From Defluviitaleaceae bacterium (GTDB lineage: Bacteria; Bacillota; Clostridia; Lachnospirales; WQUN01): 64,000 bases of DNA. Below the pieces are notes generated by a model, which did no database searches, was not told the origin of the DNA, and saw nothing but the letters and a program-made list of their open reading frames with translations. Made by a program: the position numbers and the translations under genes. The DNA lies in assembly GCA_009780315.1 (NCBI GenBank), contig WRAH01000009.1, forward strand, positions 13,516-77,515, given 5' to 3'. How positions within the stretch are numbered: position 1 is the first letter of the stretch; every line of letters starts with the position of its first letter. This document shows positions 2,507 through 29,735 of the stretch, piece by piece.

Positions 2507-2512
2507 AATAAT

Positions 2513-2553: not shown

Positions 2554-2554
2554 A

Positions 2555-2755
2555 TTATCTGTACAACGTATCTATTTTGACTATGCGCCTTGTTTCCGTC
2601 TCATTGAATTGACGCTCTTTTTCAAGCGCAGGTGTATCCGAGTCAATTTTTACAACGATACAGTCTTCACATTGTCCAAGGTCATCAATATTGATAGTGC
2701 CTAAAATACATTTATAAGCCTTATTATAAATACACTGTTCATATGCGCAATTCAT
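2555..2755 (-). CDS. Small cysteine-rich protein (DUF1540-like C-x4-C-x7-C plus CxxC pattern), function unknown
   Basis: Track ORF 2555..2764. The GTG at 2764 sits inside the SD GAGGTG, so ATG 2755 (MNCAYEQCIYNKAYKC...) is the likely start. The gene is divergent from the XRE gene. Confidence 0.5.
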   Translation of the reverse strand: MNCAYEQCIYNKAYKCILGTINIDDLGQCEDCIVVKIDSDTPALEKERQFNETETRRIVKIDTLYR

Positions 2756-2820
2756 CGCTATCACCTCATATGATTATATTACTTAATAATAGTATAATCA
2801 ATCAAGTAAATTGTCAATAA

Positions 2821-2846
2821 TGTATACATCTATTAAAGTGTATACA
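2821..2846. promoter_or_regulatory. Twin 8-bp palindromes TGTATACA (candidate XRE operator pair)
   Basis: TGTATACA occurs at 2821-2828 and again at 2839-2846, 18 bp centre to centre. The second copy abuts the SD (caGGTGG) of the XRE gene. Confidence 0.45.
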
Positions 2847-2856
2847 GGTGGTTAAA

Positions 2857-3063
2857 ATGAAAAATCAAATTATATTAGCACTAAAGGATGTACTTGAATC
2901 AAAGAATATCACACGATATGAACTTGCAAAGCGAACAGGTACACATTACCCGATTATTGATAAATACTACAAAAATAAAGTCGTAAGATACGACAGCGAA
3001 ATACTTTTGAGAATATGTATTGCACTAGATTGTGAAATTGGAGATATCATTAAAATAATTTAA
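2857..3063 (+). CDS. XRE/Cro-C1 family helix-turn-helix transcriptional regulator
   Basis: Track ORF 2848..3063. The ATG at 2857 follows the GGTGG SD. ITRYELAKRTGTHYPIIDKYYKN...LLRICIALDCEIGDII fits a short HTH_XRE protein. Confidence 0.8.
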   Translation: MKNQIILALKDVLESKNITRYELAKRTGTHYPIIDKYYKNKVVRYDSEILLRICIALDCEIGDIIKII

Positions 3064-13222: not shown

Positions 13223-15853
13223 TTAGTCAAACTTTTCACCTGCAAGTGCAGCTTGTGCAGCCGATAATCTAGCAATTGGCACACGGAATGGTGAACAAGA
13301 AACATAATCTAAGCCAACTTTGGCGCAAAATTCAATGCTGCTTGGGTCGCCGCCGTGTTCTCCACAAATACCAATTTTCAGGTCTTTTCTTGCTTTACGG
13401 CCTTTTTCAACGGCAATTTTCATCAGAGAGCCTACACCAGTTTGGTCAAGTCTTGCAAATGGGTCACCTTCATAGATGTTTGCATCAATATAATCTTTAA
13501 GAATGCGTCCTGCGTCATCACGAGAGATACCGTAGGTCATCTGGGTCAGGTCATTTGTACCAAAGGAGAAGAACTCTGCTTCACCAGCAATATCATCTGC
13601 AATGAGACATGCCCGTGGAATTTCAATCATTGTGCCAATAGAGTAATCCAAGGTTACGCCAGCGGCTTTAATGAGTTCGTCTGCCTTATTTTTAATCACT
13701 TCTTTTACATAGCGGGTTTCTTTTAAATCACCAACCAATGGAATCATCAGTTCTGGTTTAATGTCAAATCCCTTTGATTTTTTAACTTCCAAGGCTGATT
13801 CAATGATTGCCTGTGCTTGCATTTGTGCAATTTCTGGATAAGAAACTGACAGGCGGCAACCACGGTGTCCCATCATTGGGTTAAGCTCATGAAGAGAATC
13901 TGCTACATCTCTTACTTCTTTCACCGTTTTGCCCATGTCTTTTGCCAATGATTCAAAATCAGCGTCACTGGTTGGCATGAACTCGTGAAGTGGTGGGTCA
14001 AGTAAGCGAATGGTCACAGGTCGGCCTTCCATGACTTCATAAATGCCTGTAAAGTCTTTCTTTTGGAATGGCAACAGTTCAGCAAGAGCGGCGCGACGTT
14101 CTTCTTCTGTGTCAGAAAGAATCATCTTACGCATTTTGCCTATTCTGTCTGGTTCAAAGAACATATGCTCTGTACGGGTTAGACCAATACCTTCTGCGCC
14201 AAACTCAAGTGCTTTAAGGGCATCTTTTGGAGAGTCTGCATTGGTGCGTACACTGAGTTTATTGGGGACAGCTTCAAGCCAGCTCATGAAAGTGCCAAAG
14301 TTTCCGCTAATTTCAGCTTCAACTGTAGGAATGTCACCTTTATAGATTTTTCCTGTTGAACCATCAAGGGAAATGTAATCGCCCTCTTTAATGGTTTCAC
14401 CGCCAAGTGTGAAGTTCTTTTTACCAAATTTAATAGCTTCGCAACCAGATACACAACATGTACCCATGCCGCGGGCAACTACTGCCGCATGGCTGGTCAT
14501 TCCGCCGCGGGCAGTTAAGATACCTTTGGAAACTTCCATACCCATAATATCATCTGGAGATGTTTCAAGGCGCACAAGGATAACGCGCTCGTTACGCTCA
14601 TGGAAAGCCACAGCAGCGTCTGCGGCGGTAAAGTATACTTTACCTGCGGCAGCACCTGGGGAAGCAGGAAGGGCTGAACCAATAACTTGACCTGCTTTAA
14701 GGGCAGCTTGGTCAAACATAGGGTGAAGTAATTGGTCAAGAGAACGTGGATCTACCTGACGGATAGCTTCTTCCTTGGTAACGATACCTTCATTCACAAG
14801 GTCAACAGCAAGTTGTAAAGCGGCTTGTGCCGTACATTTACCATTTCTTGTTTGCAGGATAAAGAGTTTGCCATTTTCAATGGTAAATTCCATGTCTTGC
14901 ATATATTTATAGTGTTTTTCAAGTTTTTTAGCAATATCCAAAAACTCTTTAAAGCAAGCAGGAGAATCCTTTTCAAGCTCCATAAAGTCTTTTGGTGTAC
15001 GCGTTCCAGCTACAACGTCTTCGCCTTGCGCGTTCATTAGATATTCGCCATAAATTTTATTTTGACCACTGGATGGGTCACGGGTAAATACTACACCTGT
15101 GCCAGATGTGTCGCCCAAGTTTCCGTAAACCATTTCTTGTACGTTGACGGCTGTACCCCATTCGTAGGGAATGTCATGCATACGGCGGTAGATAAATGCA
15201 CGCTCGTTATCCCATGATTGGAATACTGCGGTGATTGCACCGTAAAGTTGCTCTTTCGCGCTGGTTGGGAAGTCTGTACCTTGGTCATCCCGATAGATTT
15301 TTTTGAAAATATCAACGATGGCTTTCCAGTCGTCAGCGGTCATGTTTTCATCTGAAGCATAACCTTTTTTCTCTTTATAATCATCAATGGCATGTTCAAA
15401 ACTATGCTTGCTTACGCCAATAACAACATCTGCAAACATCATAATGAAACGGCGGTATGAATCATATGCAAAGCGGTCGCCTGCGGCTTTTGCAAGCCCT
15501 GCGGCTACTTCATCATTGATACCCAAGTTAAGCACGGTATCCATCATACCTGGCATAGAAGCCCGCGCGCCTGAACGCACACTTACAAGCAGTGGGTTGG
15601 ACACATCACCAAATTTTTTGCCGCTTCCAGCTTCTAATTGTGTAATACAATCGTCAATTTGACTTTTAATATCATCAGACATCACTTTGCCTGATGAATT
15701 GTAAAGTGTACAAGCTTCTGTCGTAACAATAAACCCATTGGGTACAGGAATGCCCATATTGGTCATTTCTGCAAGGTTTGCACCTTTTCCGCCAAGGAGG
15801 TTACGCATGGTTGAGTTACCTTCCTTGAACATATATACATATTTATGACCCAT
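13223..15853 (-). CDS. ppdK: Pyruvate, phosphate dikinase
   Basis: 876 aa. Phospho-His loop GGMTSHAAVVARGMG and PEP-utiliser C-terminal block FFSFGTNDLTQM. Confidence 0.97.
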   Translation of the reverse strand: MGHKYVYMFKEGNSTMRNLLGGKGANLAEMTNMGIPVPNGFIVTTEACTLYNSSGKVMSDDIKSQIDDCITQLEAGSGKKFGDVSNPLLVSVRSGARASMPGMMDTVLNLGINDEVAAGLAKAAGDRFAYDSYRRFIMMFADVVIGVSKHSFEHAIDDYKEKKGYASDENMTADDWKAIVDIFKKIYRDDQGTDFPTSAKEQLYGAITAVFQSWDNERAFIYRRMHDIPYEWGTAVNVQEMVYGNLGDTSGTGVVFTRDPSSGQNKIYGEYLMNAQGEDVVAGTRTPKDFMELEKDSPACFKEFLDIAKKLEKHYKYMQDMEFTIENGKLFILQTRNGKCTAQAALQLAVDLVNEGIVTKEEAIRQVDPRSLDQLLHPMFDQAALKAGQVIGSALPASPGAAAGKVYFTAADAAVAFHERNERVILVRLETSPDDIMGMEVSKGILTARGGMTSHAAVVARGMGTCCVSGCEAIKFGKKNFTLGGETIKEGDYISLDGSTGKIYKGDIPTVEAEISGNFGTFMSWLEAVPNKLSVRTNADSPKDALKALEFGAEGIGLTRTEHMFFEPDRIGKMRKMILSDTEEERRAALAELLPFQKKDFTGIYEVMEGRPVTIRLLDPPLHEFMPTSDADFESLAKDMGKTVKEVRDVADSLHELNPMMGHRGCRLSVSYPEIAQMQAQAIIESALEVKKSKGFDIKPELMIPLVGDLKETRYVKEVIKNKADELIKAAGVTLDYSIGTMIEIPRACLIADDIAGEAEFFSFGTNDLTQMTYGISRDDAGRILKDYIDANIYEGDPFARLDQTGVGSLMKIAVEKGRKARKDLKIGICGEHGGDPSSIEFCAKVGLDYVSCSPFRVPIARLSAAQAALAGEKFD

Positions 15854-15868
15854 AGTTTTTAGGCTCCC

Positions 15869-16246
15869 TTATTTAAGCGTAACTTTCGCGCCGATTTCAG
15901 CAAGTTTTTTAACGATTTCATCAGCTTCAGCTTTGGGCACTGCTTCACGCATTACTTTGGGTGCGTTGTCTACCATATCTTTTGCTTCTTTTAAGCCAAG
16001 TCCTGTGATTTCACGCACAACTTTAATGACTTTAATTTTTTCTGAACCAACTTCTGTAAGTTCTACATCAAAGTCTGTTTTTTCTTCTGCTGCTTCGCCG
16101 CCGCCTGCTGCTGGACCAGCCATAACCATACCCGCTGCTGCGCTTACGCCAAATTCTTCTTCTGCTGCTTTTACAAGGTCGTTGAGTTCAAGAACTGAAA
16201 GTTCCTTCACTGCATCAATAATTTCTTGAATTGATAATTTTGCCAT
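15869..16246 (-). CDS. rplL: 50S ribosomal protein L7/L12
   Basis: The product [34 protein letters not shown]...[13 protein letters not shown] is a typical L7/L12. Confidence 0.97.
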
Positions 16247-16257
16247 TTTATAATCTC

Positions 16258-16767
16258 CTATTCTGATTTAGCTTTTTCTTCAGCCACAGCGTTAATCACG
16301 CGGGCAAAGCTGGATAATGGTGACTTGAATGAACCAAGTAGTTTGGAAATAAGCACATCTTTTGATGGAATATCTGCGATGGCTTTGGTTTTAGCGGCAT
16401 CGTAAATTTCGCCCTCAATTGCACTGGCTTTAAACTCCAAGTTAGGCATACCTTTAAGTTGCTTGGAAATTGCCGCCGCCGCCGCTGTTGCGTCATCATA
16501 TGAAAACGCTACTGCTGTTGGGCCTGCCAAATACGTCTTCAAACCTTCAAATGCTGTGCCTTCAATTGCAAAGTTTATCATTGAGTTTTTATAAACTTTG
16601 TAATCAATACCGCCAACTTTACGCATAGACTTACGCAAGGTTGTGTCTTGCTCTACAGTTAGACCGCGGGCATCTACAAGCACTACAGACTTTGTACGCT
16701 CTAACTTTTCGCGTATTTCATCGACCACGGCATGTTTTGCTTTACGATTCTTCTCCAGATTCGTCAT
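16258..16767 (-). CDS. rplJ: 50S ribosomal protein L10
   Basis: ATG 16767 ([22 protein letters not shown]) follows AAAAGGAGGTG. The track ORF extends to 16827 through leader sequence. Confidence 0.95.
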
Positions 16768-16827
16768 CTTTGCACCTCCTTTTAATGGGGGCTTTGTTCC
16801 CGCTCCCACAACATTGCGCAATTGCAC

Positions 16828-17070: not shown

Positions 17071-20000
17071 CTAAGCGATATCCGAACGCTTAATCTTACG
17101 TATATAGGTTACGGCAAACCCTGCCAGAATCAGGGCAGCCAATAAACCAGCTAATAATAGTGGAATGGTGCTGGTGATACCTGTTTGCGGCATCAGTGAC
17201 ATTACTGCGGCTACAGGCACGGGGACAGATGAAGGCATTGCCGCCGCTAGTGGAACATTATCTTCGTCAAATATCCACGTTTCTTCATCCTCATTCCATT
17301 CCCATGCGCCTTGTGGTATTCCAGTATCGTCAAATTCTACCCACATGCCGTCGTCATTGTTTACAACTTCATTGCCTACAACAGATGGAGTTGGTGGTTC
17401 TGGGCGGGTTGGAATGGTTGGACGGAATCCTCCGTCTAAATTACCGCCCCCTCCGCCTAAAATCGGCGGGCTGGTTGGTGGCGTGACATTAGGCGGTATA
17501 TTAGGTTCGCCTATGATTCCAGTAGAGCTGTTTCCCCATACTGCAAAGTAGTTTGTATCATTACTTGGCATGGCTACACTTGGAGTAACGACTGCACTTG
17601 GAGGCAATACAGAACCTACTACAAGTACTGATGTGTCTGTTGCCCAACCTAAGAAGTCATAAGTTGCGACAGTTCCCTCGTTCCAAATTAGTGCTGTACC
17701 TGCTTCTACAAGGGTAATACCTGTTGGTGTTTGCCCGACTGGTACAAAACTTGGCGGGAAGTTGCCCACGGTCAAGTTAAATGAAAGGGGTACACCTACA
17801 TGGGTGCCATTGCCCCAAAGTGCAGTGTATACAACTGCATCATTCGGCATAGTGAAGCTATGCCCTACTCCACGCACAGGTACGGCGGTAAAGTCGTTGA
17901 TGTTTGTGCCTATGGCAGGCAAGTCGCTTCCCCGTACCCATCCCATAAACATGAAGCCTTCAGGGGCTATACCCTCGTCTAGGGTTACTGTCGAACCTAG
18001 TACAGTTGCTCCACTTTCGGTCTGGTCTACATGAGGGCCAATATTGTCTGGCAAGTTATTGATAAAAAGATTGTAGTTTAATGGTTTACCAACAATCACA
18101 CCATTGCCCCAAAGTGCAGTGTAGGTTATCACTTCGTTTGGCATAGTGAAACTGCGTGTCGGGTACACTGTTCCTGTAAAATCATTGATATCAGAACCTA
18201 GTGCAGGAAGTACATCTCCCCGTACCCAGCCCATGAAAATGAAATCAACGGGATGGATACCCTCCTCAAGATTTACGTGAGTACCCACTATAACGCCTTC
18301 ACTTTTGGTTTGGTTTACGTGGGGGTCAATAGTATTTGGCAGGTTGTTGATAATAAGGTTATAATCTGTTGGCACGCCCACGAATGTACCGTCACCCCAA
18401 ATGGCAGTGTAGGTCAAATCTTCGTTTGGCATGATGAAATGGCGTGTTGGATAATACACTGTTCCTGCAAAACTGCTCAAGTCAGAACCTAATGCAGGTA
18501 ATGTTGCACCCCGTACCCAGCCCATAAATACAAAGTTGGTTGGGGCTGTGCCTTCTGCTAAGATGACATCAACACCGACTGCCACACTGCCTGTTGCTGT
18601 TTGACCAACATGTGGCCCAATGTTGTTTGGCAGATTATCAATGGTTAAGTTATCGTTGATTGGCACACCTACATAAGTGCCGTCACCCCAAATAGCGGTG
18701 TACGTGATGGCTTCATTTGGCATGGTGAAAGTACGTGTTGGGTAGTACACTGTTCCTGCAAAACTACTCAAGTCAGAACCTAATGCAGGCAGTGTTGCAC
18801 CCCTTACCCATCCCATAAATACAAAGTCAGCTGGGGCTGTACCTTCTGCTAAGGTGATATCCGTGCTTACAACCACACTGCCTGTTGCTGTTTGACCAAC
18901 ATGTGGCCCAATATTGTTTGGCAGATTGTTAATGGTTAAATTATCATTGGTTGGCAGACCTACATAAGTGCCGTCGCCCCAAATGGCGGTGTAAGTTAAT
19001 GATTCATTTGGCATGGTGAAGGTACGTGTTAGATATATCGTTCCTGCAAAACTACTCAAGTCAGAACCTAATGCAGGCAGTGTTGCACCCCTTACCCATC
19101 CCATAAATACAAAGTTGATTGGGTTTGTGCCTTGTACCAAAGTGATTGTATCCCCTGCATTCATTATTCCGCTTGGGGTTTGCCCTGATGGTATGCCTAT
19201 GGCATTTGGCAAATTATTGATTGTTAAGTTAAATGTGTCTGGTGTAAATATCCAATATCCTGTAAATGCAACGTCATGGTTTGGCATGATGAATGGTGAG
19301 CTTGTAATGGTTGCATTGCTCCATCCACTAAACGTCCATGTGCCTTGCACGCCGACTGTATTTGTATTAGATGTAGTGATTGGTGACGCGGCAATGACTA
19401 CGCCTGTTGTGCCGGCATTTAAAGTGGTTAGTGCTGGTGGCATACCAGTAACCACGGCTGGCTCTACCCCTGTGACTGTATAGGTCACGTCAAATGTGTC
19501 TGGTGTAAATGTCCAGTAACCTGTAAACGCAACATTGTTGTTTGGCATGGTAAATGGTGAACTGGATACGGTTGCATTAAACCAGCCGCTGAATGTCCAT
19601 GCACCTTGGACACCTGCCCCATTGGTGGTAGATGTGGTGGTTGGGCTTGGGGCGATAACCACGCCTGTTGTCCCTGCCGCTACTGATGTTGACGCAGCTG
19701 GCATGTTGGCAACTACAGACGGTTCAATGCCTGTAACTGTGTAGGTCACGTTAAATTGCGCAGGGGTAAATGTCCATGTGCCTGTAAAAGTTACATTACT
19801 GTTTGGCATGGTAAATGGTGATGTGGTTATGGTTGGGTGATTCCAACCATCAAATGTCCATGTGCCCATTACACCTGCGGCATTGGTGAGTGATGTGGTT
19901 GTTGGATAGGGTGCTATGGTTAAACCTGCTGTACCTGCGGTGGTGGGTGTTGCCGCTGGCGGCATATTGTTTTCAATCGCAGGTCTAACACCTATCACTT

Positions 20001-22872
20001 CATAATTGATACTAAACACAGCAGGGGTGAATGTCCAATAGCCTGTAAACTCAACATGATTATTTGGCATAATAAATGGTGAGCTTATGATGGTTGTATG
20101 ATTCCAACCGCTAAATACCCATCCGCCTTCTACACCCAAGGCATTTATTGTTGATGTGGTTGTAGGATTTGGCGCAATCAGCATACCTATTGTGCCGGCG
20201 GCAAATGGTGTTGATGCTGACGGCATGTTGGCAACTACAGGCGGTTCAATGCCTGTGACTGTGTAGGTCACGTTAAATTGTGCTGGGATAAATGTCCAAT
20301 AGCCTGTAAAGGCTACATGATTATTGGGCATGGTAAATGGTGATGTAGTGATGGTTGCATGACTCCATCCACTAAATGTCCATGTGCCTTGGGTACCTGC
20401 GGCATTGGTGGTGGATGTGGTGGTTGGTTCTGGGGCTATGGTTAAGCCTGTTGTACCTGCGTCTACTGGTGTTGACCCAGTTGGCATGTTGGCAACCACA
20501 GGAGGTTCAACTCCTGTAACTGTATAAGTCACGTTAAATTGTGCTGGAGTAAATGTCCAATATCCTGTAAAGGCTACATGATTATTGGGCATGGTAAATG
20601 GTGATGTGGTGATGGTTGCATGATTCCATCCACTAAATGTCCATGTGCCTTGGGTACCTGCGGCATTGGTGGTGGATGTGGTGGTTGGTTCTGGGGCTAT
20701 GGTTAAACCTGTTGTACCTGCGTCTACTGGTGTTGACCCAGTTGGCATGTTGGTAACCACAGGAGGTTCAGCACCTGTAACTGTATAAGTCACGCTAAAT
20801 TGTGCTGGGGTAAATGTCCAATATCCTGTAAAATGCACAGCATTATTGGGCATAGAAAATGGTGATGTGGTGATGGTTGGATGATTCCAGCCGTTAAATG
20901 TCCATGTGCCTTGGACACCTGCGGCATTGGTGGTAGATGGAGTGGTTGGTATTGGTGCAATATCTACACTTGTGGTAGGCATTACATATGTTGTTGGCGG
21001 CATACCGTTGACTACATCAGGTGTAATGCCTGTAACTGTATAAGTTACATCAAGTGGAAGTGCCGGCGAACTAGTTGTAACATTAAATGTGCTAACCGCT
21101 GAATCTAAGTGGTTAACATTATTTGCCCTATGGTACATTTCAACTGTATAAGTTGTACCATCTGTTAAGCCTGTAAAATTAAGACTGATATCCCAGTCTC
21201 TAACGACTGCACCAGTAGCGGAGTTGATTAGACGGTATTGTGTTGTCCAGCCTGTACCGGGCGAACCTGTCCAAGCATTTAATGGCGTTGGTGCATTTGC
21301 AGCTGTAATAGTAAACATATTTTCGCCTACTACATTTTCTGCTGCACCAGAAGGCGCATTTGTCTCCCTTGCTATAATAGTAACTGTAATATCTGGTATT
21401 GATATGCCAACTGCCGGCGGAGCTGGTGTACCTGCACTTGATATAACAGTACCTTGACGCGTAGCAGGAATATTCAAGGTCACAGTATGTGTCCCGACAC
21501 CAAGATTTCTTGAATTTGGAGTAATATTAAAATTTCTTTGGGGAACAGCATTATTCAAAGCCGTACCAGGTGGATTAATTGAACCAATATTAAAGCCAGC
21601 AAAAGGGCCAGTAATAGTAGGGTTACTAAAACTTATTGATGATGCAGAAACGCCATTCTCTCTTGTTAAAGTTACAGATGCTGATGGGATACTTTGTCCC
21701 CATACACGTGTACCAAAATCAACATGAGATATATTAGCACTTAAAGTCGGTGGAATTGCTGACGCAACTGAAAAAGTCAAATCTCCCAAATTTCTTGTGG
21801 GGTGTCCAGGTGTAATGAGGTTATTTGTAATCGTTTGTCCGATAAAATGATGATTTGCTGGAAAACCTGGTGTTATTGTTGTCGTGTATCCAGTTCGAAC
21901 CCCTAATATAGGGGGGATGGCTGGAGGGTAAAATCTTTGTTGGGAAGTACCCACTAAAAAACCAGTTACATCCGACAAACTTATGCCTCCTGGATTAACT
22001 AATGTTGCGCCTACAGGAGTACTCCTTGCAACATGCGAACCTGGATAATTTAAAAATTGGTTCATAGCCAGCTCAGTTGCTCCACCCAAACTTCCTGTAT
22101 AACCAAAATTTGGAAAAATATAAGTTTCAATAACTATGGTTTCTGTGCGTGTCGGCCATATATAATGTCTGCCAGTACCCGTTGACATTGAAGAAAATTG
22201 CGGTGTAAACCCCATGAAAATTCTAACACTAAAATCATGTACAAAATCATCACTTGCTGTTGCACCATTTGCAATGGTTGCACGTACGATGACAGTACCC
22301 ATATCAAAAGCATGGAGTTCATTGTCTACAAGCACTGCGCCAGTCGCGCCAGGGTCTGAAATGCTCCAAGTAATGCTTTGGTTTGTGGCGTTGCTTGGGT
22401 ATACATCACCAGTTAAGTACAATGGAATGCCTATATTTGTTTCCGTTGGCAGGTTGTGCAGTGTTGCCACAGGAACAAAGTCTAGGGCTGGCAATTGGGG
22501 TAGTACAGGCGCAATGTCAACCAGATTATCTTTGCATCCGCAATGATTGTCTTCGTCACACTCGCATTCTGCACATTCACAGTCAGTTTCTTCTTCTCCT
22601 TCAATGTCTTCTTCTGTTTCAGATTCTTCCGTTTCGGCTTCCTCTGTTTCATCCTCTGTTTCTTCGTCAATGTCAGTTTCTTCATCTTCTTCTACATCAT
22701 TATCATCCGTATAGTCATCATAAATGCTGCTTGATACATAATCGCTTTCATCATATTCCGGCGGCAAAGCGTCTACGGGCAATGCGGCAAAAACCAGAAT
22801 AAACACAAGCAAAATGCACATTACCTTTTGAATGAACATCCGCCCTTGATAATTTAATATGCTGTTTAACAT
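17071..22872 (-). CDS. Giant wall-anchored repeat adhesin: signal peptide, acidic Cys-containing tract, Big_2-like domain, 7 + 6 Listeria/Bacteroides-type (Flg_new-like) repeats, C-terminal sorting signal
   Basis: Track ORF 17071..22917 (TTG start). ATG 22872 or ATG 22839 (MFIQKVMCILLVFILVFAALPVDA) are likelier starts. The repeat signature is GTWTFSGW...FTMPNN.V.FTGYWTF. The C-terminus reads LMPQTG, then a hydrophobic stretch, then RKIKR. Confidence 0.9.
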   Translation of the reverse strand: MLNSILNYQGRMFIQKVMCILLVFILVFAALPVDALPPEYDESDYVSSSIYDDYTDDNDVEEDEETDIDEETEDETEEAETEESETEEDIEGEEETDCECAECECDEDNHCGCKDNLVDIAPVLPQLPALDFVPVATLHNLPTETNIGIPLYLTGDVYPSNATNQSITWSISDPGATGAVLVDNELHAFDMGTVIVRATIANGATASDDFVHDFSVRIFMGFTPQFSSMSTGTGRHYIWPTRTETIVIETYIFPNFGYTGSLGGATELAMNQFLNYPGSHVARSTPVGATLVNPGGISLSDVTGFLVGTSQQRFYPPAIPPILGVRTGYTTTITPGFPANHHFIGQTITNNLITPGHPTRNLGDLTFSVASAIPPTLSANISHVDFGTRVWGQSIPSASVTLTRENGVSASSISFSNPTITGPFAGFNIGSINPPGTALNNAVPQRNFNITPNSRNLGVGTHTVTLNIPATRQGTVISSAGTPAPPAVGISIPDITVTIIARETNAPSGAAENVVGENMFTITAANAPTPLNAWTGSPGTGWTTQYRLINSATGAVVRDWDISLNFTGLTDGTTYTVEMYHRANNVNHLDSAVSTFNVTTSSPALPLDVTYTVTGITPDVVNGMPPTTYVMPTTSVDIAPIPTTPSTTNAAGVQGTWTFNGWNHPTITTSPFSMPNNAVHFTGYWTFTPAQFSVTYTVTGAEPPVVTNMPTGSTPVDAGTTGLTIAPEPTTTSTTNAAGTQGTWTFSGWNHATITTSPFTMPNNHVAFTGYWTFTPAQFNVTYTVTGVEPPVVANMPTGSTPVDAGTTGLTIAPEPTTTSTTNAAGTQGTWTFSGWSHATITTSPFTMPNNHVAFTGYWTFIPAQFNVTYTVTGIEPPVVANMPSASTPFAAGTIGMLIAPNPTTTSTINALGVEGGWVFSGWNHTTIISSPFIMPNNHVEFTGYWTFTPAVFSINYEVIGVRPAIENNMPPAATPTTAGTAGLTIAPYPTTTSLTNAAGVMGTWTFDGWNHPTITTSPFTMPNSNVTFTGTWTFTPAQFNVTYTVTGIEPSVVANMPAASTSVAAGTTGVVIAPSPTTTSTTNGAGVQGAWTFSGWFNATVSSSPFTMPNNNVAFTGYWTFTPDTFDVTYTVTGVEPAVVTGMPPALTTLNAGTTGVVIAASPITTSNTNTVGVQGTWTFSGWSNATITSSPFIMPNHDVAFTGYWIFTPDTFNLTINNLPNAIGIPSGQTPSGIMNAGDTITLVQGTNPINFVFMGWVRGATLPALGSDLSSFAGTIYLTRTFTMPNESLTYTAIWGDGTYVGLPTNDNLTINNLPNNIGPHVGQTATGSVVVSTDITLAEGTAPADFVFMGWVRGATLPALGSDLSSFAGTVYYPTRTFTMPNEAITYTAIWGDGTYVGVPINDNLTIDNLPNNIGPHVGQTATGSVAVGVDVILAEGTAPTNFVFMGWVRGATLPALGSDLSSFAGTVYYPTRHFIMPNEDLTYTAIWGDGTFVGVPTDYNLIINNLPNTIDPHVNQTKSEGVIVGTHVNLEEGIHPVDFIFMGWVRGDVLPALGSDINDFTGTVYPTRSFTMPNEVITYTALWGNGVIVGKPLNYNLFINNLPDNIGPHVDQTESGATVLGSTVTLDEGIAPEGFMFMGWVRGSDLPAIGTNINDFTAVPVRGVGHSFTMPNDAVVYTALWGNGTHVGVPLSFNLTVGNFPPSFVPVGQTPTGITLVEAGTALIWNEGTVATYDFLGWATDTSVLVVGSVLPPSAVVTPSVAMPSNDTNYFAVWGNSSTGIIGEPNIPPNVTPPTSPPILGGGGGNLDGGFRPTIPTRPEPPTPSVVGNEVVNNDDGMWVEFDDTGIPQGAWEWNEDEETWIFDEDNVPLAAAMPSSVPVPVAAVMSLMPQTGITSTIPLLLAGLLAALILAGFAVTYIRKIKRSDIA
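17515..19233 (-). repeat. Six in-frame tandem coding repeats of about 291 bp (97 aa)
   Basis: The units begin (F/D/Y)NL(T/I/F)INNLPNNIGPHVGQT and end TFTMPNE..TYTAIWGDGTYVG. The measured period is 291 bp (acataagtg at 18671 and at 18962). Confidence 0.9.
19234..21054 (-). repeat. Seven in-frame tandem coding repeats of 261 bp (87 aa)
   Basis: tgctgg recurs at 20281, 20542 and 20803, exactly 261 bp apart. The two units starting at 20281 and 20542 are near-identical at the DNA level. Confidence 0.92.
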
Positions 22873-23206
22873 ACAGAGAATACCCCCTAGGTTTAATTTT
22901 TTATTTTTCTCTTGCAAATCTTAAAATCCTATAAATCTTGGTTAAGGGCCCTCATGAACCAAAAATAAAATAGGCTATGTATAGAAGACCACAGGGGTCA
23001 CGAATACGTTACATACGTTTTTTAAAAAATTTATAAAAAATTTTATCATGCCCTAAAAAACGACACCAAATGTCCCGTTGCGGGCAATCATACAAAAACT
23101 TTATTTGAAGGTGAATAATATGGCATAAGTATATACACTTCAAATAAAAAGGGAAATGACCAATATGTAGCAATTTAATTTTTCCTTGTCTAAAAACAAG
23201 GCGAAA

Positions 23207-23241
23207 ATAAAAAAGCCATCTCTACGAAGATGGCTTTTTTG
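23207..23241 (-). terminator. Intrinsic terminator after the sigma-fusion gene
   Basis: Hairpin aagccatct-ctacg-aagatggctt with flanking A and T runs. A second hairpin ccttgt/acaagg sits at 23185-23200. Confidence 0.75.
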
Positions 23242-23262: not shown

Positions 23263-24429
23263 TTAAGGCACATCCACTACAGATGGCATACCCACTATTC
23301 CTGTTTCTCTATTGCCCCATACGGCAATATAAACAATATCACTGTTGGGCATGAGTTCAAGGGGGGTGACTATTGCGTCCGCAGGTATTGGCTCGCCTAC
23401 CACCAGCCCTTTTGTACTGCTTACCCAGCCTAAAAAATCATAACCTGCAACCATGCCAGGGTCTAATAAAAATGTGTCTGATTCAATGGTTTCCACTGGC
23501 AAAGCTTCTGTCACTATCTCTATCGGGAGTATATTTTCTACATAGGCTGGTGTGTTGTTTTCAGGCGGTGGTATTTCAATATCTTCTTCTTGTACATACA
23601 ATATCGACAGTTCATCTTCTGATACGGCTATAACTGTATCTTGTATAGGCACAGGTGCAATATATACTGTGGTGTCATACAGGCTACTCAATGCCAACCC
23701 TCCTGCAAGCAAAGCGGTAACTGCTACACCACCGGCTATACTGGCAGTTCTTACAAAGTGTAGTCTTCTTATAACGCTTGTAAAAGCAAGGGTTGCCACG
23801 CCTAACTGGGTTGCGGCAAACACTTCTTCTTCCTTGAAAAATAGCTTTGAAACAGAAACAAACGGAAGAACCACCACTGGCAAATGTTTTCTGTCTTTTT
23901 CAATTTTCTTTTTCATGCTTTTGCGGGCATCATGCATGGCTTTTCGCACACTGGCTGAACTACTGCCTTGATAGTCTGCTATTTCATTCGTATCCATGCC
24001 TTGATAATAATATAAATAAATCACTTCACGTTGTTTGTCTGGCAGTGAATTGACAAGCTTTAGCATGTCCTTTTGCAATTCCTTGTTGGCGACATATGCC
24101 TCGGGCAGAAAATCCTCGTCAGCGTCTTGCATATCTTCAGGCACTTCGTTGGTTTGTAATGCAAACTTTTGATTTTTATTCAGTTTAGTACGGCATACTC
24201 TAACGGTTATTGTACCAATCCATGCTTTAAGCTTAGTATCATCTTTCAAATTTTTAATGTTTTTAAACACCTTTATAAAAACATCCTGCAAGACATCATT
24301 GGCATCTGATTCATTGTTGCAAAGTTTGGCGGCTATAAATAAAACATACCGCCAGTATGTATCATATATAACACGAAAAGCCTCCTCATCCCCATTTTTT
24401 GCTTTTTCGATGACTTCCCGTATCACCAT
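23263..24429 (-). CDS. ECF-type sigma-70 family factor fused to a TM helix and an extracytoplasmic Listeria/Bacteroides-type repeat domain
   Basis: ATG 24429 follows AAAGGTGTG. Region 2 is DVLQDVFIKVF and region 4 is REVIYLYYYQGMDTNEIADYQGSSSASVRKAMHDARK. The TM helix is IAGGVAVTALLAGGLALSSL. The C-terminal block is YDFLGWVSS...MPNSDIVYIAVWGN. Confidence 0.85.
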   Translation of the reverse strand: MVIREVIEKAKNGDEEAFRVIYDTYWRYVLFIAAKLCNNESDANDVLQDVFIKVFKNIKNLKDDTKLKAWIGTITVRVCRTKLNKNQKFALQTNEVPEDMQDADEDFLPEAYVANKELQKDMLKLVNSLPDKQREVIYLYYYQGMDTNEIADYQGSSSASVRKAMHDARKSMKKKIEKDRKHLPVVVLPFVSVSKLFFKEEEVFAATQLGVATLAFTSVIRRLHFVRTASIAGGVAVTALLAGGLALSSLYDTTVYIAPVPIQDTVIAVSEDELSILYVQEEDIEIPPPENNTPAYVENILPIEIVTEALPVETIESDTFLLDPGMVAGYDFLGWVSSTKGLVVGEPIPADAIVTPLELMPNSDIVYIAVWGNRETGIVGMPSVVDVP

Positions 24430-24447
24430 TATCACACCTTTCAAGCC

Positions 24448-24477
24448 ATTATATGACCAACCACTAGAAATTGTCAA
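24448..24477 (-). promoter_or_regulatory. Sigma-A-type promoter of the sigma-fusion gene
   Basis: Minus strand reads TTGACA (24477-24472), an 18-nt spacer, then TATAAT (24453-24448). Confidence 0.6.
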
Positions 24478-24510: not shown

Positions 24511-25290
24511 TCATGACCCTGTAGACTGATATTTTTTAAGCCCCAATTTAAAACATGCATAACATGGCAAAAGAAAAAGTAATGACATTACAGGGGCAAT
24601 TCCATGAAAAATGCCAGCTTCTTCACGCCCCAATAAAAATAATAAGGGATAGTATTGAATCAGCGCAAGGGGAACAATAAAAGTCAAAAATTTCAATATG
24701 CCATCACCATATACGGAAAAAGGTAATCTTCCATGTTCTTGGGCACCATGGGTGAGAAGATTCATAAATTCCAACCCTTCCAGTGTGAAAAATGACAATG
24801 CCGCATACAGCACTTGCAAGCCAAAAAATAATAAGCCGCCGCAAATGATCATCAATGCAAGGGTAATCACCCTAGGCAAAGTCCAGTCTATACTACTGCT
24901 TGGAATAACATAAATAAAAACCAATATGGCTTGAAGAAGCCGCCCCAAGCGGGAAAAGTCCATTTGTGATGCCAGTACTTGAAAAATAACATTGCGGGGG
25001 CGCACCAAAGCTCTATCAAAACCCCCATTGCCAATAAGATTAGGAAACTGGTCAAAACCACGTGCAATCAGCTCGCTGATAGAAAACGCAGACATGATGA
25101 TTGCAAAACAAAGCAATACTTCTTCATGGGTAAAGCCCCCAACAGAGTCAAAGCGGGCAAACATAAAATTGATACTCAGCAAAGTCACAAAGGCCACTAG
25201 AAACTGCCCAAGGGTTGTAAAAAAGAAAGAGGACTTAAACTGCATTTGACTTTTAAGGTGTATTGAAAAATATTTTATATACAAGCTCAT
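24511..25290 (-). CDS. ABC-2 family transporter permease (DUF990-type)
   Basis: 259-aa polytopic membrane protein, the third gene of an ATPase + two-permease trio. Confidence 0.75.
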   Translation of the reverse strand: MSLYIKYFSIHLKSQMQFKSSFFFTTLGQFLVAFVTLLSINFMFARFDSVGGFTHEEVLLCFAIIMSAFSISELIARGFDQFPNLIGNGGFDRALVRPRNVIFQVLASQMDFSRLGRLLQAILVFIYVIPSSSIDWTLPRVITLALMIICGGLLFFGLQVLYAALSFFTLEGLEFMNLLTHGAQEHGRLPFSVYGDGILKFLTFIVPLALIQYYPLLFLLGREEAGIFHGIAPVMSLLFLLPCYACFKLGLKKYQSTGS

Positions 25291-25293
25291 GTT

Positions 25294-26097
25294 TTAACCT
25301 CCTTGAACCACCACGCGCTTTAAAGCACGAGACATAAAAAATCGTCCTGCCAATAACATAAACAAAAGCCAAAAAATTTGCAAAAGCATACTCTGCACCA
25401 AATCCGCACCTGTTAAGTAGCCGCTAAAAATAAGCAATGGTGTATTTTTCATGGCCCCAAATGGCGAAAACTCTATCATAGTGCGTAAAGTGTCGGGAAA
25501 AAATGGAATGGGAATATAACTACCCATCAGAAAATCTGCGGCAATGCCTACAACAATACGTATCCCTTTGCTGTTCATGGTGTAAAAAGTTGAAATGTAA
25601 ATGAGCATAGAAAATGCAACCACCACACTTAAACTTAAAATTAAACTAATGATAAAAAGCACCACTGTTATAAAACTTGAAGGCAAAACCAGACGAAAAG
25701 CCACCGGTAAAATGAGTGCAATCACTAAAAGAGGCACAGCACGAAGTACTGTACGGGCGATGCGGTTTGCAGAAATCGTGGTAAACCACCGCCCATATAC
25801 ATCCATGGGGCGAACCAAATCATAAGCCACACCGCCGCTTTCTATTGATTCAAAAATGCTATTTTCCCAAAACCATATAAAAAGCAAAGCCATAAATGCC
25901 TGTTGCATCCAAATGTAAGCAACGGTCTGCTGAAATGTCATTGGAAACCCAGTGGGATTTTCACGGTAAAAAGCGGCAAAACCCAAAATAGTCATAAGCC
26001 CCCACCCAAACTGCGTCACTAATCCAGCCAAAGCCGCCGCACGATATTGTAGGGAATTGGTAAAACGTATTCTAAAAAGTGCCGCAAAGGGCTTCAT
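25294..26097 (-). CDS. ABC-2 family transporter permease (DUF990-type)
   Basis: 267-aa polytopic membrane protein. Its start overlaps the ATPase stop by 4 nt. Confidence 0.75.
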   Translation of the reverse strand: MKPFAALFRIRFTNSLQYRAAALAGLVTQFGWGLMTILGFAAFYRENPTGFPMTFQQTVAYIWMQQAFMALLFIWFWENSIFESIESGGVAYDLVRPMDVYGRWFTTISANRIARTVLRAVPLLVIALILPVAFRLVLPSSFITVVLFIISLILSLSVVVAFSMLIYISTFYTMNSKGIRIVVGIAADFLMGSYIPIPFFPDTLRTMIEFSPFGAMKNTPLLIFSGYLTGADLVQSMLLQIFWLLFMLLAGRFFMSRALKRVVVQGG

Positions 26098-26894
26098 ATT
26101 TTAAGCTCCTTATACAGTGCGGCAACCGCTTCCTCTGCATTGTCACCATCAGTATTTGCACGGGATTTTAGCTCTGCTAAACTTCCGTCTAAAAGCACTT
26201 GCCCTCTTCCTATAAGAATAATGCGCTCGGTCAAAGCTTCAATATCTTGCATGTCATGAGTGGTAAGGATAACTGTCGTTTTACGCTCGACATTCAGTTG
26301 TTTAATAAATTGGCGCACGGCTATTTTAGACACAGCGTCCAGCCCAATCGTTGGCTCGTCTAGGAATAGAATTTTTGGGTTGTGTAACAAGCTTGCCACA
26401 ATTTCACAACGCATTCTTTGCCCTAAACTTAAACTTCTGGCTGGAGTTTTTAAAATTTCCCCCAGTTCCAAAATTTCTGTAAGTTCTTTTAAATTTTTTG
26501 AATATACAGTTTGCGGGGTTTTATAAATATCGCGGATAAGTTCAAAGCTGTCTATGACAGGCACATCCCACCACAATTGACTGCGCTGACCAAACACTAC
26601 CCCAATATCACGCACATGGGCTATTCTTTGCCGCCATGGGGTGCGCCCATTGATACTACAATCGCCATCGTCAGGCGTTAGGATTCCGCACATTATTTTT
26701 ATGGTTGTACTTTTTCCTGCCCCATTTGGCCCTATATACCCCACCATTTCACCATCGTTGACAGTAAAGCTGACATTATGCAGTGCATGAATCAGCTCAT
26801 ATTCCCGAGAAAATAACGCCTTAAACGCATTGGCAAACCCTGCCTGACGCTTTGACACTTTAAATGTTTTAGTGATGTTTTGTAACGTAATCAA
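26094..26894 (-). CDS. ABC transporter ATP-binding protein
   Basis: Walker A GPNGAGKST, signature LSLGQRMRCEI, Walker B LFLDEPTIGLD. Confidence 0.93.
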   Translation of the reverse strand: MITLQNITKTFKVSKRQAGFANAFKALFSREYELIHALHNVSFTVNDGEMVGYIGPNGAGKSTTIKIMCGILTPDDGDCSINGRTPWRQRIAHVRDIGVVFGQRSQLWWDVPVIDSFELIRDIYKTPQTVYSKNLKELTEILELGEILKTPARSLSLGQRMRCEIVASLLHNPKILFLDEPTIGLDAVSKIAVRQFIKQLNVERKTTVILTTHDMQDIEALTERIILIGRGQVLLDGSLAELKSRANTDGDNAEEAVAALYKELKI

Positions 26895-26986: not shown

Positions 26987-27238
26987 TTATAATCCTGCAA
27001 GTTTCATCATTTCTTGTATCGCTTCCTTAGAAACTTTACGCCCATGAAATTCGATTAAATCATCAGCAGAGCCTGTGAATGTACATGCAGGTTCATATTT
27101 CTTAAGTATAATTTTGTCAGAATCCACAAAGACCTCTAATGCATCCCTGTCATTGATATGCATTGTCCTTCTCAACTCGCAAGGTAAAACCACACGCCCA
27201 AGCTCATCTACACGTCTTACAACACCTGTTGCTTTCAT
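26987..27238 (-). CDS. abrB: Transition-state regulator AbrB
   Basis: MKATGVVRRVDELGRVVLPCELRRTMHINDRDALEVFVDSDKIILKKY is a canonical SpoVT/AbrB swapped-hairpin N-domain. Confidence 0.9.
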   Translation of the reverse strand: MKATGVVRRVDELGRVVLPCELRRTMHINDRDALEVFVDSDKIILKKYEPACTFTGSADDLIEFHGRKVSKEAIQEMMKLAGL

Positions 27239-28030: not shown

Positions 28031-28561
28031 ATGAATTGGATGCTTTTTTTATCTGACATGATTATTCCTATCACATTTGCAGGGATTCTTATGTATGCAT
28101 TTAGCAGAAAAGTTCCCGTTTATGACCATTTTGTTACCGGTGCAAAAGAAGGCTTTTTTACCGTTTTACATATTGCACCAACCATTGTTGGCTTACTTAT
28201 CTCCGTGGGAATGCTTAGGGCAAGCGGTGCATTTGACTTACTTGGCGGACTTATTGCACCACTGACTGACCGTATCGGATATCCAGCAGAAACCGTACCC
28301 CTTACCCTCATGAGGTTAGTATCATCATCTGCCTCCACAGGTTTGCTTTTGGATATATTTGAAAACTATGGGCCTGATTCATTTATTGGACGCTTTACAT
28401 CCATTATGATGAGCAGTACCGAGACAGTTTTTTACACCATGAGCATTTACTTTATGAGCGTAAAGGTTACAAAAACACGCTTTACACTAGCAGGGGCGTT
28501 GCTTGCCAATTTTACAGGGGTTATGCTTAGTCTCATGATTACCAGATATCTCTATCCATAA
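28031..28561 (+). CDS. spmB: Spore maturation protein B
   Basis: 176-aa membrane protein immediately after spmA, the typical SpmA/SpmB pair. Confidence 0.8.
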   Translation: MNWMLFLSDMIIPITFAGILMYAFSRKVPVYDHFVTGAKEGFFTVLHIAPTIVGLLISVGMLRASGAFDLLGGLIAPLTDRIGYPAETVPLTLMRLVSSSASTGLLLDIFENYGPDSFIGRFTSIMMSSTETVFYTMSIYFMSVKVTKTRFTLAGALLANFTGVMLSLMITRYLYP

Positions 28562-29735
28562 AATTATGTTCGTCTGGGGTAGGTGCTTCAAGTTTTTTCA
28601 CTTCACGGAATGCAATATACTCATCCAATAAATCTTTGAAAATTGCCACAATAGGAATTGCCATAAGCATTCCCAGTACACCAAAATATGCACCGCCAAC
28701 GGTTACACTAATGATAATAAGAATTGGACTTAGTGAAAACGAACCGCCCATGAGCTTTGGCTGAATAACATTGCCGTCAATTTGCTGAATAATAAACATC
28801 ACAACGGCGGCAATGGCGGCAATCCCCAAGCCTTGGGTAAATGCCACGACAATGACAGCAATTGCCGTACCCAAGATAGAGCCAAAGTACGGAATATAAT
28901 TTAATATCCCCAAAATCAACCCTAAAACCAAGAAATAGGGCGAGCCAAATAACGCCAATACTACCATCATAATTGTGCCTAGAATCAAACCGTCAATGGT
29001 TTGTGTATAGATATATTGATGGAAGTTAAAATTTAATTTTTTTGCATACTTTACAATGATTCCACTGGTACGGTCCGTAAAAGCGGCATTGACAAATCTA
29101 CCTGCAAACGCTTTAAGTTTATCTTTTTCAAGTAAGAAATAAATAGACGCGATGATTGAAATAATGAGTTGGAAAACAGCAAAGGCGGCACTGCCAAAGC
29201 CCGTAATAATTTGCCCAAGCAATGCTTCAAAATTAAAACCTTGAATGAAGTCGTAAATAAATTCATTCACTACAGTAATAAGCCCTTCTTCATCAATATC
29301 AGGCACAAACTCAGGCAAATCCCAGCCATCTACAATCAATAACCATTCGCGGAAAGTTGCTTCAAAATCTGGTATCGCTTCAACCAAATCCATGATACTT
29401 TCATAAATTGCAGGTACGATTATGTTAATTAAAATAGCAAAAACAATCACAACCAGCACAGCCGTTGTGACAACGGACAACCCGCGGCTTATTTTTTGCA
29501 CCACTATGTTATTTATCTTTAAGTAAAGCCGTTGAATAAAGGAACATGGCAAATTTAAAATATATGCAATAATCGCACCCAGCACAAATGGCGCAATAAC
29601 ACCCATAAAATGATTCAGTGCTTCTGAAAAAAAAGCAACCTCAGAAATTAGCCGAAACGCAACAATTAACCCCACACCTAAAATAAGATAAGGTATCATT
29701 GAGCGCATCATTCGTGATTTTAAAAACTTGTTCAC
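28539..29735 (-). CDS. AI-2E family transporter (PerM/YtvI-like)
   Basis: 398 aa, about 8 TM segments. GTG start 7 nt after GAGGAG. Its 3' end overlaps spmB by 23 bp. Confidence 0.8.
   Translation of the reverse strand: MNKFLKSRMMRSMIPYLILGVGLIVAFRLISEVAFFSEALNHFMGVIAPFVLGAIIAYILNLPCSFIQRLYLKINNIVVQKISRGLSVVTTAVLVVIVFAILINIIVPAIYESIMDLVEAIPDFEATFREWLLIVDGWDLPEFVPDIDEEGLITVVNEFIYDFIQGFNFEALLGQIITGFGSAAFAVFQLIISIIASIYFLLEKDKLKAFAGRFVNAAFTDRTSGIIVKYAKKLNFNFHQYIYTQTIDGLILGTIMMVVLALFGSPYFLVLGLILGILNYIPYFGSILGTAIAVIVVAFTQGLGIAAIAAVVMFIIQQIDGNVIQPKLMGGSFSLSPILIIISVTVGGAYFGVLGMLMAIPIVAIFKDLLDEYIAFREVKKLEAPTPDEHNFMDRDIW

Follow-up and report, generated by a model that had tools for sequence, protein, structure and literature searches.

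A sigma factor of the extracytoplasmic function (ECF) type that carries its own transmembrane (TM) helix and a C-terminal domain predicted to lie outside the cell is encoded next to a giant surface adhesin in the stretch of Defluviitaleaceae bacterium DNA analysed here (64,000 nt of contig WRAH01000009.1, hereafter the window), and that domain shares its subtype with one of the adhesin's repeats. For Firmicutes of the gut and termite gut, giant repeat adhesins are among the chief means of attachment to particles and hosts, and their control is largely obscure. We consider it probable, with moderate confidence, that sigma and anti-sigma functions reside here in a single chain, that the sigma part is freed by proteolysis, and that it then turns on the adjacent adhesin gene through an ECF-type promoter.

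The membrane-tethered sigma factor

The open reading frame (ORF) at 23263-24477 had been singled out in a first-pass annotation made from the DNA letters without database searches. The ORF exists, but translation places it on the minus strand; the plus-strand frames are riddled with stops, and a plus-strand reading was rejected. Its likely start codon is the ATG at 24429, with the ribosome-binding-site-like sequence AAAGGTG just 5' of it, and the gene for the single-chain membrane-tethered ECF sigma factor, as delimited by the ORF and its homologues, thus extends over 23263..24429 (-) and encodes 388 aa plus a stop. The mechanical ORF opens with a TTG at 24477, but this is really the start of the -35 hexamer of a sigma-A (sigma-70) type promoter, TTGACA-18 nt-TATAAT (24448..24477, -), which has 12/12 hexamer matches and is the top-scoring site in a 7.9-kb promoter scan. 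Directly 3' of the stop codon is an intrinsic terminator (23203..23240, -) with a 14-bp stem and a U-run, whose RNA fold has an energy of -20.8 kcal/mol (z=-4.4 relative to shuffles). The strong sigma-A promoter proposed earlier is therefore there, and together with the gene's own terminator it defines a monocistronic unit under a housekeeping-type promoter. The product is 100% identical to an NCBI protein of Defluviitaleaceae bacterium, recorded as 'sigma-70 family RNA polymerase sigma factor' and derived from a metagenome-assembled genome.

Both sigma region 2 (aa 22-88; 24166..24366, -) and sigma region 4 (aa 122-172; 23914..24066, -) are present in this one ORF, as originally described, separated by ~33 aa. 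Region 2 is matched by Pfam PF04542 (Sigma70_r2; E=6.8e-12, 45.5 bits, cut-off 24) and region 4 by PF08281 (Sigma70_r4_2; E=4.2e-12, 46 bits, cut-off 25.7), and of the sigma region models these alone match, with none for sigma1 or sigma3. PF07638 also scores above its threshold (30.8 bits, cut-off 21.1), as does the NCBIfam model for the ECF superfamily, TIGR02937 (91.4 bits, cut-off 42.9). The window protein belongs to the ECF (group 4) sigma-70 family. None of the NCBIfam subfamily or equivalog models reaches its cut-off (the best is TIGR02985, with 103.5 bits against 126.4), and no SigI or RsgI model in Pfam or NCBIfam matches the protein. The closest solved sigma factor by sequence is Bacillus subtilis SigW (E=1.3e-14), and both regions are modelled by AlphaFold2 (AF2) with a predicted local distance difference test (pLDDT) score above 90.

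Sigma region 4 is followed by a basic stretch, a hydrophobic-acidic motif (aa 185-206, VVVLPFVSVSKLFFKEEEVFAA; 23812..23877, -) and the sequence RRLHFVRT. The motif is conserved among the relatives described below, and is a candidate in-cis anti-sigma or degron segment: F197, E200 and A205 are invariant in an 8-member alignment of sigma fusions, and the pattern [VI]-P-L-x-x-L-L-x-x-E-E-x-A-F-A-A is conserved across 78 members of a broader family. Also conserved there are a stretch rich in Ala and Thr, the TM helix and the Tyr that directly follows this helix (47 of the 54 members with a residue at that position). There is no match to the Pfam zf-HC2 model in the window protein, residues 180-228 are without cysteine, and the interval from sigma region 4 to the TM helix has no Cys or His motif.

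Topology prediction, a check that the first-pass annotation had proposed, finds one strong TM helix (aa 229-250; 23680..23745, -), oriented N-in/C-out by Kyte-Doolittle hydropathy and the positive-inside rule. The helix scores 1.88 in the window protein and 2.0-2.8 in homologues, and in the window protein three Lys/Arg fall within the 15 aa that precede it. A single strong helix obeying the positive-inside rule, with Lys/Arg on its N-terminal side and none on its C-terminal side, occurs in 8/8 proteins tested. By hydropathy, then, the C-terminal domain of the fusion is predicted to be outside the cell; two weaker hydrophobic segments precede the TM helix, and the C-terminus would still be outside even if these form a membrane hairpin. 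Between helix and domain is a putative extracytoplasmic linker rich in acidic residues, Pro and Tyr (aa 251-311; 23497..23679, -), delimited by alignment and by AF2 pLDDT below 50. It is predicted to be disordered, varies in length among homologues, and at ~60 aa is shorter than the 90 or so first estimated.

Seven further proteins (P0002-P0008; P and L labels denote homologous proteins and loci compared with the window) were found in a word-indexed search, with 394-547 aa and 37-50% alignment identity over the full length. An exhaustive profile search added P0018, and there is a partial relative on L096. There are thus eight further full-length homologues of ~35-50% identity from independent metagenome assemblies (JGI 3300009826 and 3300010162; ENA ERZ27257297/300), representing different samples and assemblers. 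All have the sigma domain, juxtamembrane motif, TM helix, variable linker and an FLGW...AVWG domain; this C-terminal domain is present two or three times in P0003, P0018 and the protein of L096.

These relatives bear on the concern that an assembly error, a frameshift or a decaying pseudogene might hide what are really separate sigma and anti-sigma genes. The window comes from a metagenome-assembled genome, in which indel errors are possible. However, because the same uninterrupted layout recurs in homologues from different samples and assemblies, a frameshift artefact is excluded, and conserved residues across the junction contradict the split of a conventional sigma/anti-sigma pair. Moreover, at E<=1e-30 the exhaustive profile search yields 777 cluster representatives. 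Among the best 150 listed, most align without a break from sigma region 2 across the juxtamembrane motif to the end of the TM helix. We regard the artefact explanation as effectively refuted, with a negligible chance of being right, and the one-ORF fusion as genuine.

The adhesin and the shared repeat

The gene downstream of the sigma gene encodes a giant sortase-anchored adhesin (17071..22872, -) of ~1,933 aa from a probable start ATG at 22872, within an ORF spanning 17071..22917. The protein is composed of a signal peptide, an acidic region, SHIRT units, six B-repeats, a Pro-rich wall-spanning region and an MPQTG signal. SHIRT (PF18655) matches in six stretches with 135.6 bits, and there are seven 87-aa units that each end in YWTFTP; Flg_new_2 matches aa 1240-1948 with 27.1 bits against a cut-off of 23.6. 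Five of the B-repeats (R1-R5; 17758..19233, -) are bulk repeats of an FxFMGWVRG...YTAIWGDG type, as defined by the repeat listing and their mutual scores. The cell-wall sorting signal (17074..17193, -) consists of the variant motif MPQTG, a 23-aa hydrophobic stretch and an RKIKRSD tail, and is recognized by the LPXTG anchor model TIGR01167 (18.5 bits, cut-off 15.9). The adhesin is a substrate of the LPXTG sortase class and a SHIRT-repeat (periscope-type) surface protein, resembling known periscope-type SHIRT/B-repeat LPXTG adhesins in its SHIRT repeats, InlB-type B-repeats and sortase signal.

The predicted extracellular domain of the sigma fusion (aa 312-384; 23278..23496, -) is a putative divergent InlB-type B-repeat of what we call the sigma type (YDFLGW...AVWGN..TGIVG), identified by BLASTP and by a score matrix. 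As first reported, it aligns with the last repeat of the adhesin, repeat 6 (17497..17718, -; aa 1734-1807 in the numbering from TTG): 36/74 residues are identical (49%; E=2e-18), compared with identities of 25-39% and E values of 1e-6 to 2e-3 for the other five repeats. So close a match is far more than chance would give, and it is specific to the last repeat. The adhesin peptide quoted in the first-pass annotation is a genuine match, although its position, given as 17515-17670, is off by ~10 nt; it corresponds to aa 1753-1805 of ORF 17071..22917(-), nt 17503-17661.

The first-pass annotation had also described the domain as copied from the adhesin, and this does not hold. The C-terminal domain of the window protein scores higher against that of P0002, from another genome, than against adhesin repeat 6 (218 vs 189), and the coding DNA of the two window domains is only ~58% identical. 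Because sigma C-terminal domains score closer across genomes, and because of this low DNA identity, the domain is not a local copy, and recent gene conversion or duplication between domain and repeat is ruled out. Repeat 6 of the window adhesin scores 167, 178 and 162 against the C-terminal domains of P0002, P0003 (its second domain) and P0004; it scores 162-189 against the sigma C-terminal domains of four genomes, and 68-103 against its own siblings R1-R5, which score 225-403 among themselves. From these comparisons the sigma ectodomain and repeat 6 are members of one old subtype (YDFLGW...LVVG...VTP...MP...AVWGN..TGIIG), distinct from the bulk repeats.

Assignment of this domain to the InlB-type class is by transitivity through related repeats, because the domain itself has no Pfam match even at E<=10. 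The Pfam models considered were PF18998 and PF09479. Flg_new_2 (cut-off 23.6) scores 19.9 bits on the C-terminal domain of P0018 and 62.2 bits on the repeats of another giant adhesin, P0017, to set beside the value given above for the window adhesin, and the InlB B-repeat structure 2y5p gives a weak match to the profile of the domain (E=0.39).

The architecture recurs beside giant proteins elsewhere, a search that had been suggested at the outset: the sigma-fusion gene has a gene for a giant secreted protein downstream of it, on the same strand, both in the window and in six loci homologous to it. The downstream genes encode more than 4,360 aa in L004 (with P0003), more than 1,741 aa in L001 (with P0005, after toxin-antitoxin modules; the overlapping locus L002 ends earlier), more than 1,464 aa in L085/L086 (with P0007), more than 561 aa in L088 (with P0002) and more than 2,722 aa in L096 (with the partial sigma fusion). 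In L089, with P0018, the start of the adhesin is seen, with a signal peptide, acidic region and Big_2-like N-terminus as in the window adhesin. The giant genes of these homologous loci are all cut by contig ends, with their C-terminal repeats outside the view.

L096 provides an independent instance of the shared module. Its adhesin has one sigma-type repeat with 44% identity over 77 aa to the C-terminal domain of its own sigma factor, followed by at least 17 near-identical repeats of another type (ANGMTWAAATAVAG) that resemble the C-terminal domains of the P0005-P0008 subclade (ANMTW.QA.E.GY). Thus in two independent loci, the window and L096, there is a single sigma-type repeat among many bulk repeats, and the claim that the sensor module is shared with the adjacent adhesin is borne out twice. 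The idea that the sigma-type repeat is always the last, membrane-proximal one was rejected: it is last in the window and first of the array in L096, and membrane proximity is therefore not the common factor.

The sigma-TM fusions form a large, uncharacterised family that is found almost only in metagenomes. All 78 members examined carry sigma regions 2 and 4, and the best 150 listed in the profile search are mostly of 400-600 aa, with some reaching 1,930 aa. No named or cultured relatives were recovered by a word-indexed search with the 78-member alignment or by cluster look-ups, and a search of GTDB species genomes with the family alignment gave no family member in the best 80 loci, which hold generic ECF sigma factors with ~25-33% identity over the sigma domain. 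Only about nine members have a B-repeat C-terminal domain. Other ectodomains are of DUF11/CLIPPER (four copies), SdrD_B, Cna-B pilin, InlK_D3, Big_13, GLUG and class-3 lipase (Lipase_3) type, and some members have an added N-terminal zinc ribbon. Two of three members sampled, P0056 (L092) and P0025 (L102), have a giant secreted protein with an acidic Tyr-rich N-terminus downstream.

This variety gives some weight to the view that the shared domain has no functional meaning, with B-repeats drawn by shuffling from a common pool and the sigma factor sensing another cue, such as envelope stress; such a view leaves room for the sigma factor controlling the adhesin. It would account for the range of surface-protein ectodomains in the broad family, for the low DNA identity of domain and repeat, and for the occurrence of B-repeat adhesins that have no sigma partner. 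The ectodomains of P0056 (DUF11) and P0025 also show no detectable similarity to the visible N-terminal 1,200-1,500 aa of the giants downstream of them, although this is weak evidence because those proteins are cut by contig ends. A family-wide rule that the ectodomain is a domain of the neighbour was set aside on the same observation, with the neighbours only partly visible. Against the pool view, however, repeat 6 is closer to sigma domains of four genomes than to its own siblings, and L096 again has exactly one sigma-type repeat beside at least 17 of another type. We consider it unlikely, and favour a shared module that matters for control of the adhesin.

Several other features of the adhesin and of the family may be mentioned. 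Adhesin aa 1337-1425, in the bulk B-repeats (18640-18910, -), have a borderline match to the Pfam FimH mannose-binding domain (26.0 bits on the sub-sequence against a cut-off of 25, and 23.5 bits on the whole adhesin), which may be spurious or a hint of lectin-like function. Next to the acidic N-terminal region, on its C-terminal side, is a Cys-rich run, CECAECECDEDNHCGC (aa ~110-128; 22530-22590, -), which is not seen in the homologous giant proteins. A word-indexed protein search with the C-terminal 236 aa of the adhesin (17071-17780) gave no match, not even to the adhesin itself; the sigma protein of the same genome is present in that collection, and perhaps the public record has no protein call for the adhesin. 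A Tyr/Asp/Glu-rich segment stands right after the signal peptide in all of the giant proteins (22650-22800 in the window; also L004, L001, L089, L092 and L102), and a similar Tyr/acidic segment stands right after the TM helix of the sigma fusions (23497-23679 in the window). The likeness of the two may be no more than a coincidence of composition, or it may mark a feature for processing or recognition that both have in common. Within the broad family, one branch (P0121, P0128, P0166-P0168, P0088, P0090 and P0092) has a class-3 lipase domain in an ectodomain of 700-1,500 aa, often with a zinc ribbon or double zinc ribbon N-terminal to the sigma domain.

A candidate promoter and a model for adhesin control

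Comparison of the regions upstream of the giant genes revealed a motif, TGTAAC-N18-GTCT(A/T)C, in the window, L004, L085/L086 (two tandem copies each) and L088. The spacer is 18 nt in every case, and an A/T-rich tract usually stands before the motif. In the window this candidate ECF-type promoter (TGTAAC-N18-GTCT(TC); 22986..23013, -) follows such a tract and is ~115 nt before the ATG at 22872; TGTAAC-N18-GTCT has no other exact match in the 64 kb. Among 88 loci it occurs in four family loci only, in each case between the sigma and giant genes and in the right orientation, with 0 matches in the 84 other loci (~1.2 Mb). An AAC...GTC layout is the promoter type read by ECF sigma factors of the SigW and sigma-E type. 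The motif is most likely a promoter read by the tethered sigma factor. Between the sigma and adhesin genes there is no strong sigma-70-type site, the best having 9/12 matches, which agrees with the earlier remark that the adhesin gene lacks a recognisable housekeeping promoter. With synteny in the window and six further loci and an ECF-type promoter in four independent loci, the proposal that the adhesin is the target of the sigma factor is now a likely one.

The sigma gene itself is another matter. No ECF motif precedes it in the window or in any other locus, and where promoters of the sigma genes are recognisable in other loci they are sigma-A-like. Autoregulation of the sigma gene was therefore rejected, and the system is not autoregulated in the usual ECF way.

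The two promoter copies in L085 (4758-5230; also L086, 4402-4870) are ~238 nt apart in a 1-kb intergenic region, each preceding a similar stretch (TGTGG.TTTGG.TC.CAA...GGGTTT), and look as if promoter and leader had been duplicated in tandem. For the leader of the window adhesin gene, a structured 5'-UTR element was ruled out (z=+0.84).

How the sigma domain may be held inactive is suggested by structure prediction. An AF2 model built on the 8-sequence alignment was discarded as too shallow (pLDDT 51); that built on 78 sequences was used for the cytoplasmic part only, its C-terminal domain being of low confidence. In the latter, the segment after sigma region 4 is predicted to form two helices (193-207 and 209-239; pLDDT ~87-93), the second of which extends into the TM segment. 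The best superpositions of this model are with ECF sigma factors bound by anti-sigma factors – SigW/RsiW (TM-score 0.68), CnrH/CnrY (rmsd 5.9 A), RpoE/NepR and SigK/RskA – and those with holoenzyme-bound sigma factors are very poor (26-28 A). Such a closed form is compatible with a short cis-acting anti-sigma element of class-II-like kind.

We propose the following circuit. The sigma gene would be transcribed alone from its housekeeping-type promoter and the protein made constitutively, as an ECF sigma factor with its own membrane anchor and sensor and with sigma2-sigma4 in the cytoplasm. The two-helix juxtamembrane segment probably clamps the sigma domain in a closed, inactive state, in the manner of a minimal cis anti-sigma domain. 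Outside the cell, beyond the disordered acidic linker, the InlB-type B-repeat would sense an external cue, which could be a ligand of the sigma-type repeat of the adhesin, following SigI/RsgI logic, or the adhesin itself. The cue would trigger regulated proteolysis, with a site-1 cut outside and a site-2 cut in the membrane, and the Ala-rich stub would be removed; the Ala/Thr-rich stretch before the TM helix could serve as a post-cleavage degron. The freed soluble sigma factor would then activate the TGTAAC-N18-GTCTWC promoter of the second gene, that of the giant sortase-anchored adhesin. We infer four of these points in particular: that the sigma factor reads this promoter, that the tethered form is inactive, that release is proteolytic, and the nature of the signal.

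The second and third points are opposed by a model in which the sigma factor works while tethered, like ToxR or CadC, recruiting RNA polymerase to the adhesin promoter at the membrane without cleavage. Synthesis of a 1,900-5,000-aa protein, from transcription through translation to secretion, would thereby be coupled in space. The constitutive sigma-A promoter and the lack of an autoregulatory ECF promoter at the sigma gene would suit this arrangement, as would the very large secreted target in every locus and the ~50 aa available between sigma4 and the membrane. However, we know of no membrane-tethered sigma factor that is active without release, the predicted closed conformation resembles the anti-sigma-bound form and could not bind core RNA polymerase, and the Ala/Thr-rich stretch before the TM helix seems to resemble post-cleavage degrons. 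The fused sigma/anti-sigma protein IutY is, moreover, inactive until processed (PMC8999054). Activity in the tethered state thus seems to us distinctly improbable, and we retain proteolytic release as the preferred mechanism.

A number of observations weigh against control of the adhesin by a proteolytically freed sigma factor. The evidence is purely computational, with both transcription of the adhesin and use of the promoter inferred, and the promoter is assigned to the tethered sigma factor from conservation of the motif alone. That motif was not found upstream of the giant gene in L001, L089, L096 or L092, although L001 has a version with two mismatches, TGCAAC-N18-GTGT; its absence there implies either a different specificity or a link that does not hold everywhere. 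The juxtamembrane segment is matched by none of the anti-sigma families in Pfam, just as no Pfam model matches the C-terminal domain, and AF2 may tend toward the compact form for lone ECF sigma factors in any case. Similar B-repeat adhesins without a sigma-fusion neighbour exist (P0017, of 5,589 aa, P0054 and P0050), P0112 of the broad family has no giant gene downstream, and there is no protease gene linked to the window locus.

A more speculative version of the proposal, which we think has rather little chance of being correct, makes the external B-repeat a stand-in for the sigma-type repeat of the adhesin, such that the cell reads how much of the adhesin is correctly displayed, or whether a bound surface pulls on it. 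The two B-repeats would bind one another, or would be rivals for a common partner in the wall or in sorting, and the cell would adjust transcription of that one giant gene to the display of, or pull on, its product; the wider family would then be a general class of one-protein sigma factors for self-monitoring of surface proteins in gut Firmicutes.

In either form the locus would be a compact and testable circuit, with one constitutive protein as sensor, anti-sigma and sigma factor and one target promoter. It provides a link between a large uncharacterised regulator family and giant adhesin genes, and short orthogonal sigma-promoter pairs are attractive as synthetic biology parts.

Related systems and the surroundings of the locus

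The best-characterised mechanistic precedent is IutY of Pseudomonas putida (ECF243), a single chain with an N-terminal ECF sigma domain, a single TM segment and an extracytoplasmic C-terminal sensor (PMC8999054, PMC5411451). It is inactive until regulated intramembrane proteolysis, and is released by Prc and RseP (PMC8999054, PMC5411451). IutY differs in being a Gram-negative protein of FecI/FecR type that responds to a TonB-dependent outer-membrane receptor and acts on siderophore uptake, whereas the window protein is from a Gram-positive-type Firmicute, has an adhesin-type B-repeat ectodomain and an adhesin as its putative target, and contains no FecR domain. Neither FecR nor a related Pfam domain was detected in it or its 78 relatives, and there is no TonB-dependent receptor gene near the window sigma gene.

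The layout of the window protein matches that of ECF52, in which a C-terminal anti-sigma-like segment is followed by TM and Pro-rich extracytoplasmic parts and a binding domain. The actinobacterial groups ECF48, ECF52 and ECF53, of which SCO4117 is an example, have a zinc-finger anti-sigma domain, TM helices, a Pro-rich linker and a carbohydrate-binding domain (PMC8999054, PMC5826349, PMC7826278), and proteolytic activation has been proposed for SCO4117 (ECF52; PMC8999054, PMC5826349). These groups differ in their zinc-binding anti-sigma (ZAS) domain (HxxxCxxC) and carbohydrate-binding module; the window protein has the VPL..LL..EE.AFAA motif in place of ZAS, belongs to another phylum and has an adhesin gene as its partner.

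In the SigI/RsgI systems of Clostridium thermocellum, with which the first-pass annotation had drawn a parallel, the sensor module of the anti-sigma factor is likewise kin to a module of the regulated extracellular machinery (PMC6852018, PMC10575876). However, these are two proteins, SigI is a non-ECF sigma factor, and RsgI has its own N-terminal sigma-binding domain and carbohydrate-binding or PA14 sensors, none of which is detected in the window protein by Pfam or NCBIfam. SigW/RsiW of B. subtilis and sigma-E/RseA of Escherichia coli share the AAC ... GTC/CGT promoter layout, and SigW is closest by both sequence and predicted fold. Compared with SigW/RsiW, the window protein is one chain, with a ~45-aa cytoplasmic inhibitory part rather than a 4-helix anti-sigma domain, and no autoregulatory ECF promoter. 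The window protein is thus not of the IutY/FecIR, ECF52 or SigI/RsgI type, but probably works like the first two, with the sensor-sharing logic of the third.

We found no report in the searchable literature of periscope-type adhesins that have, upstream of them, a dedicated membrane-tethered sigma factor with a domain in common. Nor was there one of an ECF sigma factor fused to an adhesin-type domain, or of this Firmicute sigma-TM family, which the main text of the ECF classification does not describe; the supplements of the ECF classification were outside the scope of this search, and a previously named ECF group for the sigma-TM family is therefore possible. Should the ectodomain indeed monitor the adhesin or a ligand of it, single-chain ECF signalling, with iron uptake (IutY) and Streptomyces development (ECF52) as its earlier instances, would reach as far as surface-adhesin control in Firmicutes.

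The interval between the sigma-fusion and giant genes holds toxin-antitoxin modules (PIN/RelB, Gp49/HTH_3, ParE/Phd and PHD-like) in several loci – L001 (11335-14830), L096 (~1500-3000), L089 (4431-5153) and L087 (2869-3445) – with none in the window, and seems to be a hotspot for toxin-antitoxin insertion. A second giant surface protein in the window, of 1,681 aa (53551-58596, -), has DUF285, DUF4430, FIVAR and SLH domains; there is no TGTAAC-N18-GTCT upstream of its gene, which is therefore presumably regulated otherwise.

The window locus is flanked by rplJ-rplL and pyruvate phosphate dikinase on one side (13223-16827) and by an AI-2E transporter on the other (28539-29735), and rpoB/rpoC and an AI-2E transporter are near the sigma fusion in L001 (1-7540). 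This housekeeping neighbourhood is conserved, and the two look like orthologous parts of the chromosome rather than mobile islands. Directly upstream of the window sigma gene is an ABC-2 type transporter, with an ATPase and two permease-like ORFs (24511-26894, -), and beyond it a MazE-like antitoxin gene (26987-27238, -). An ABC transporter also precedes P0017, the giant adhesin without a sigma partner, in L090/L091.

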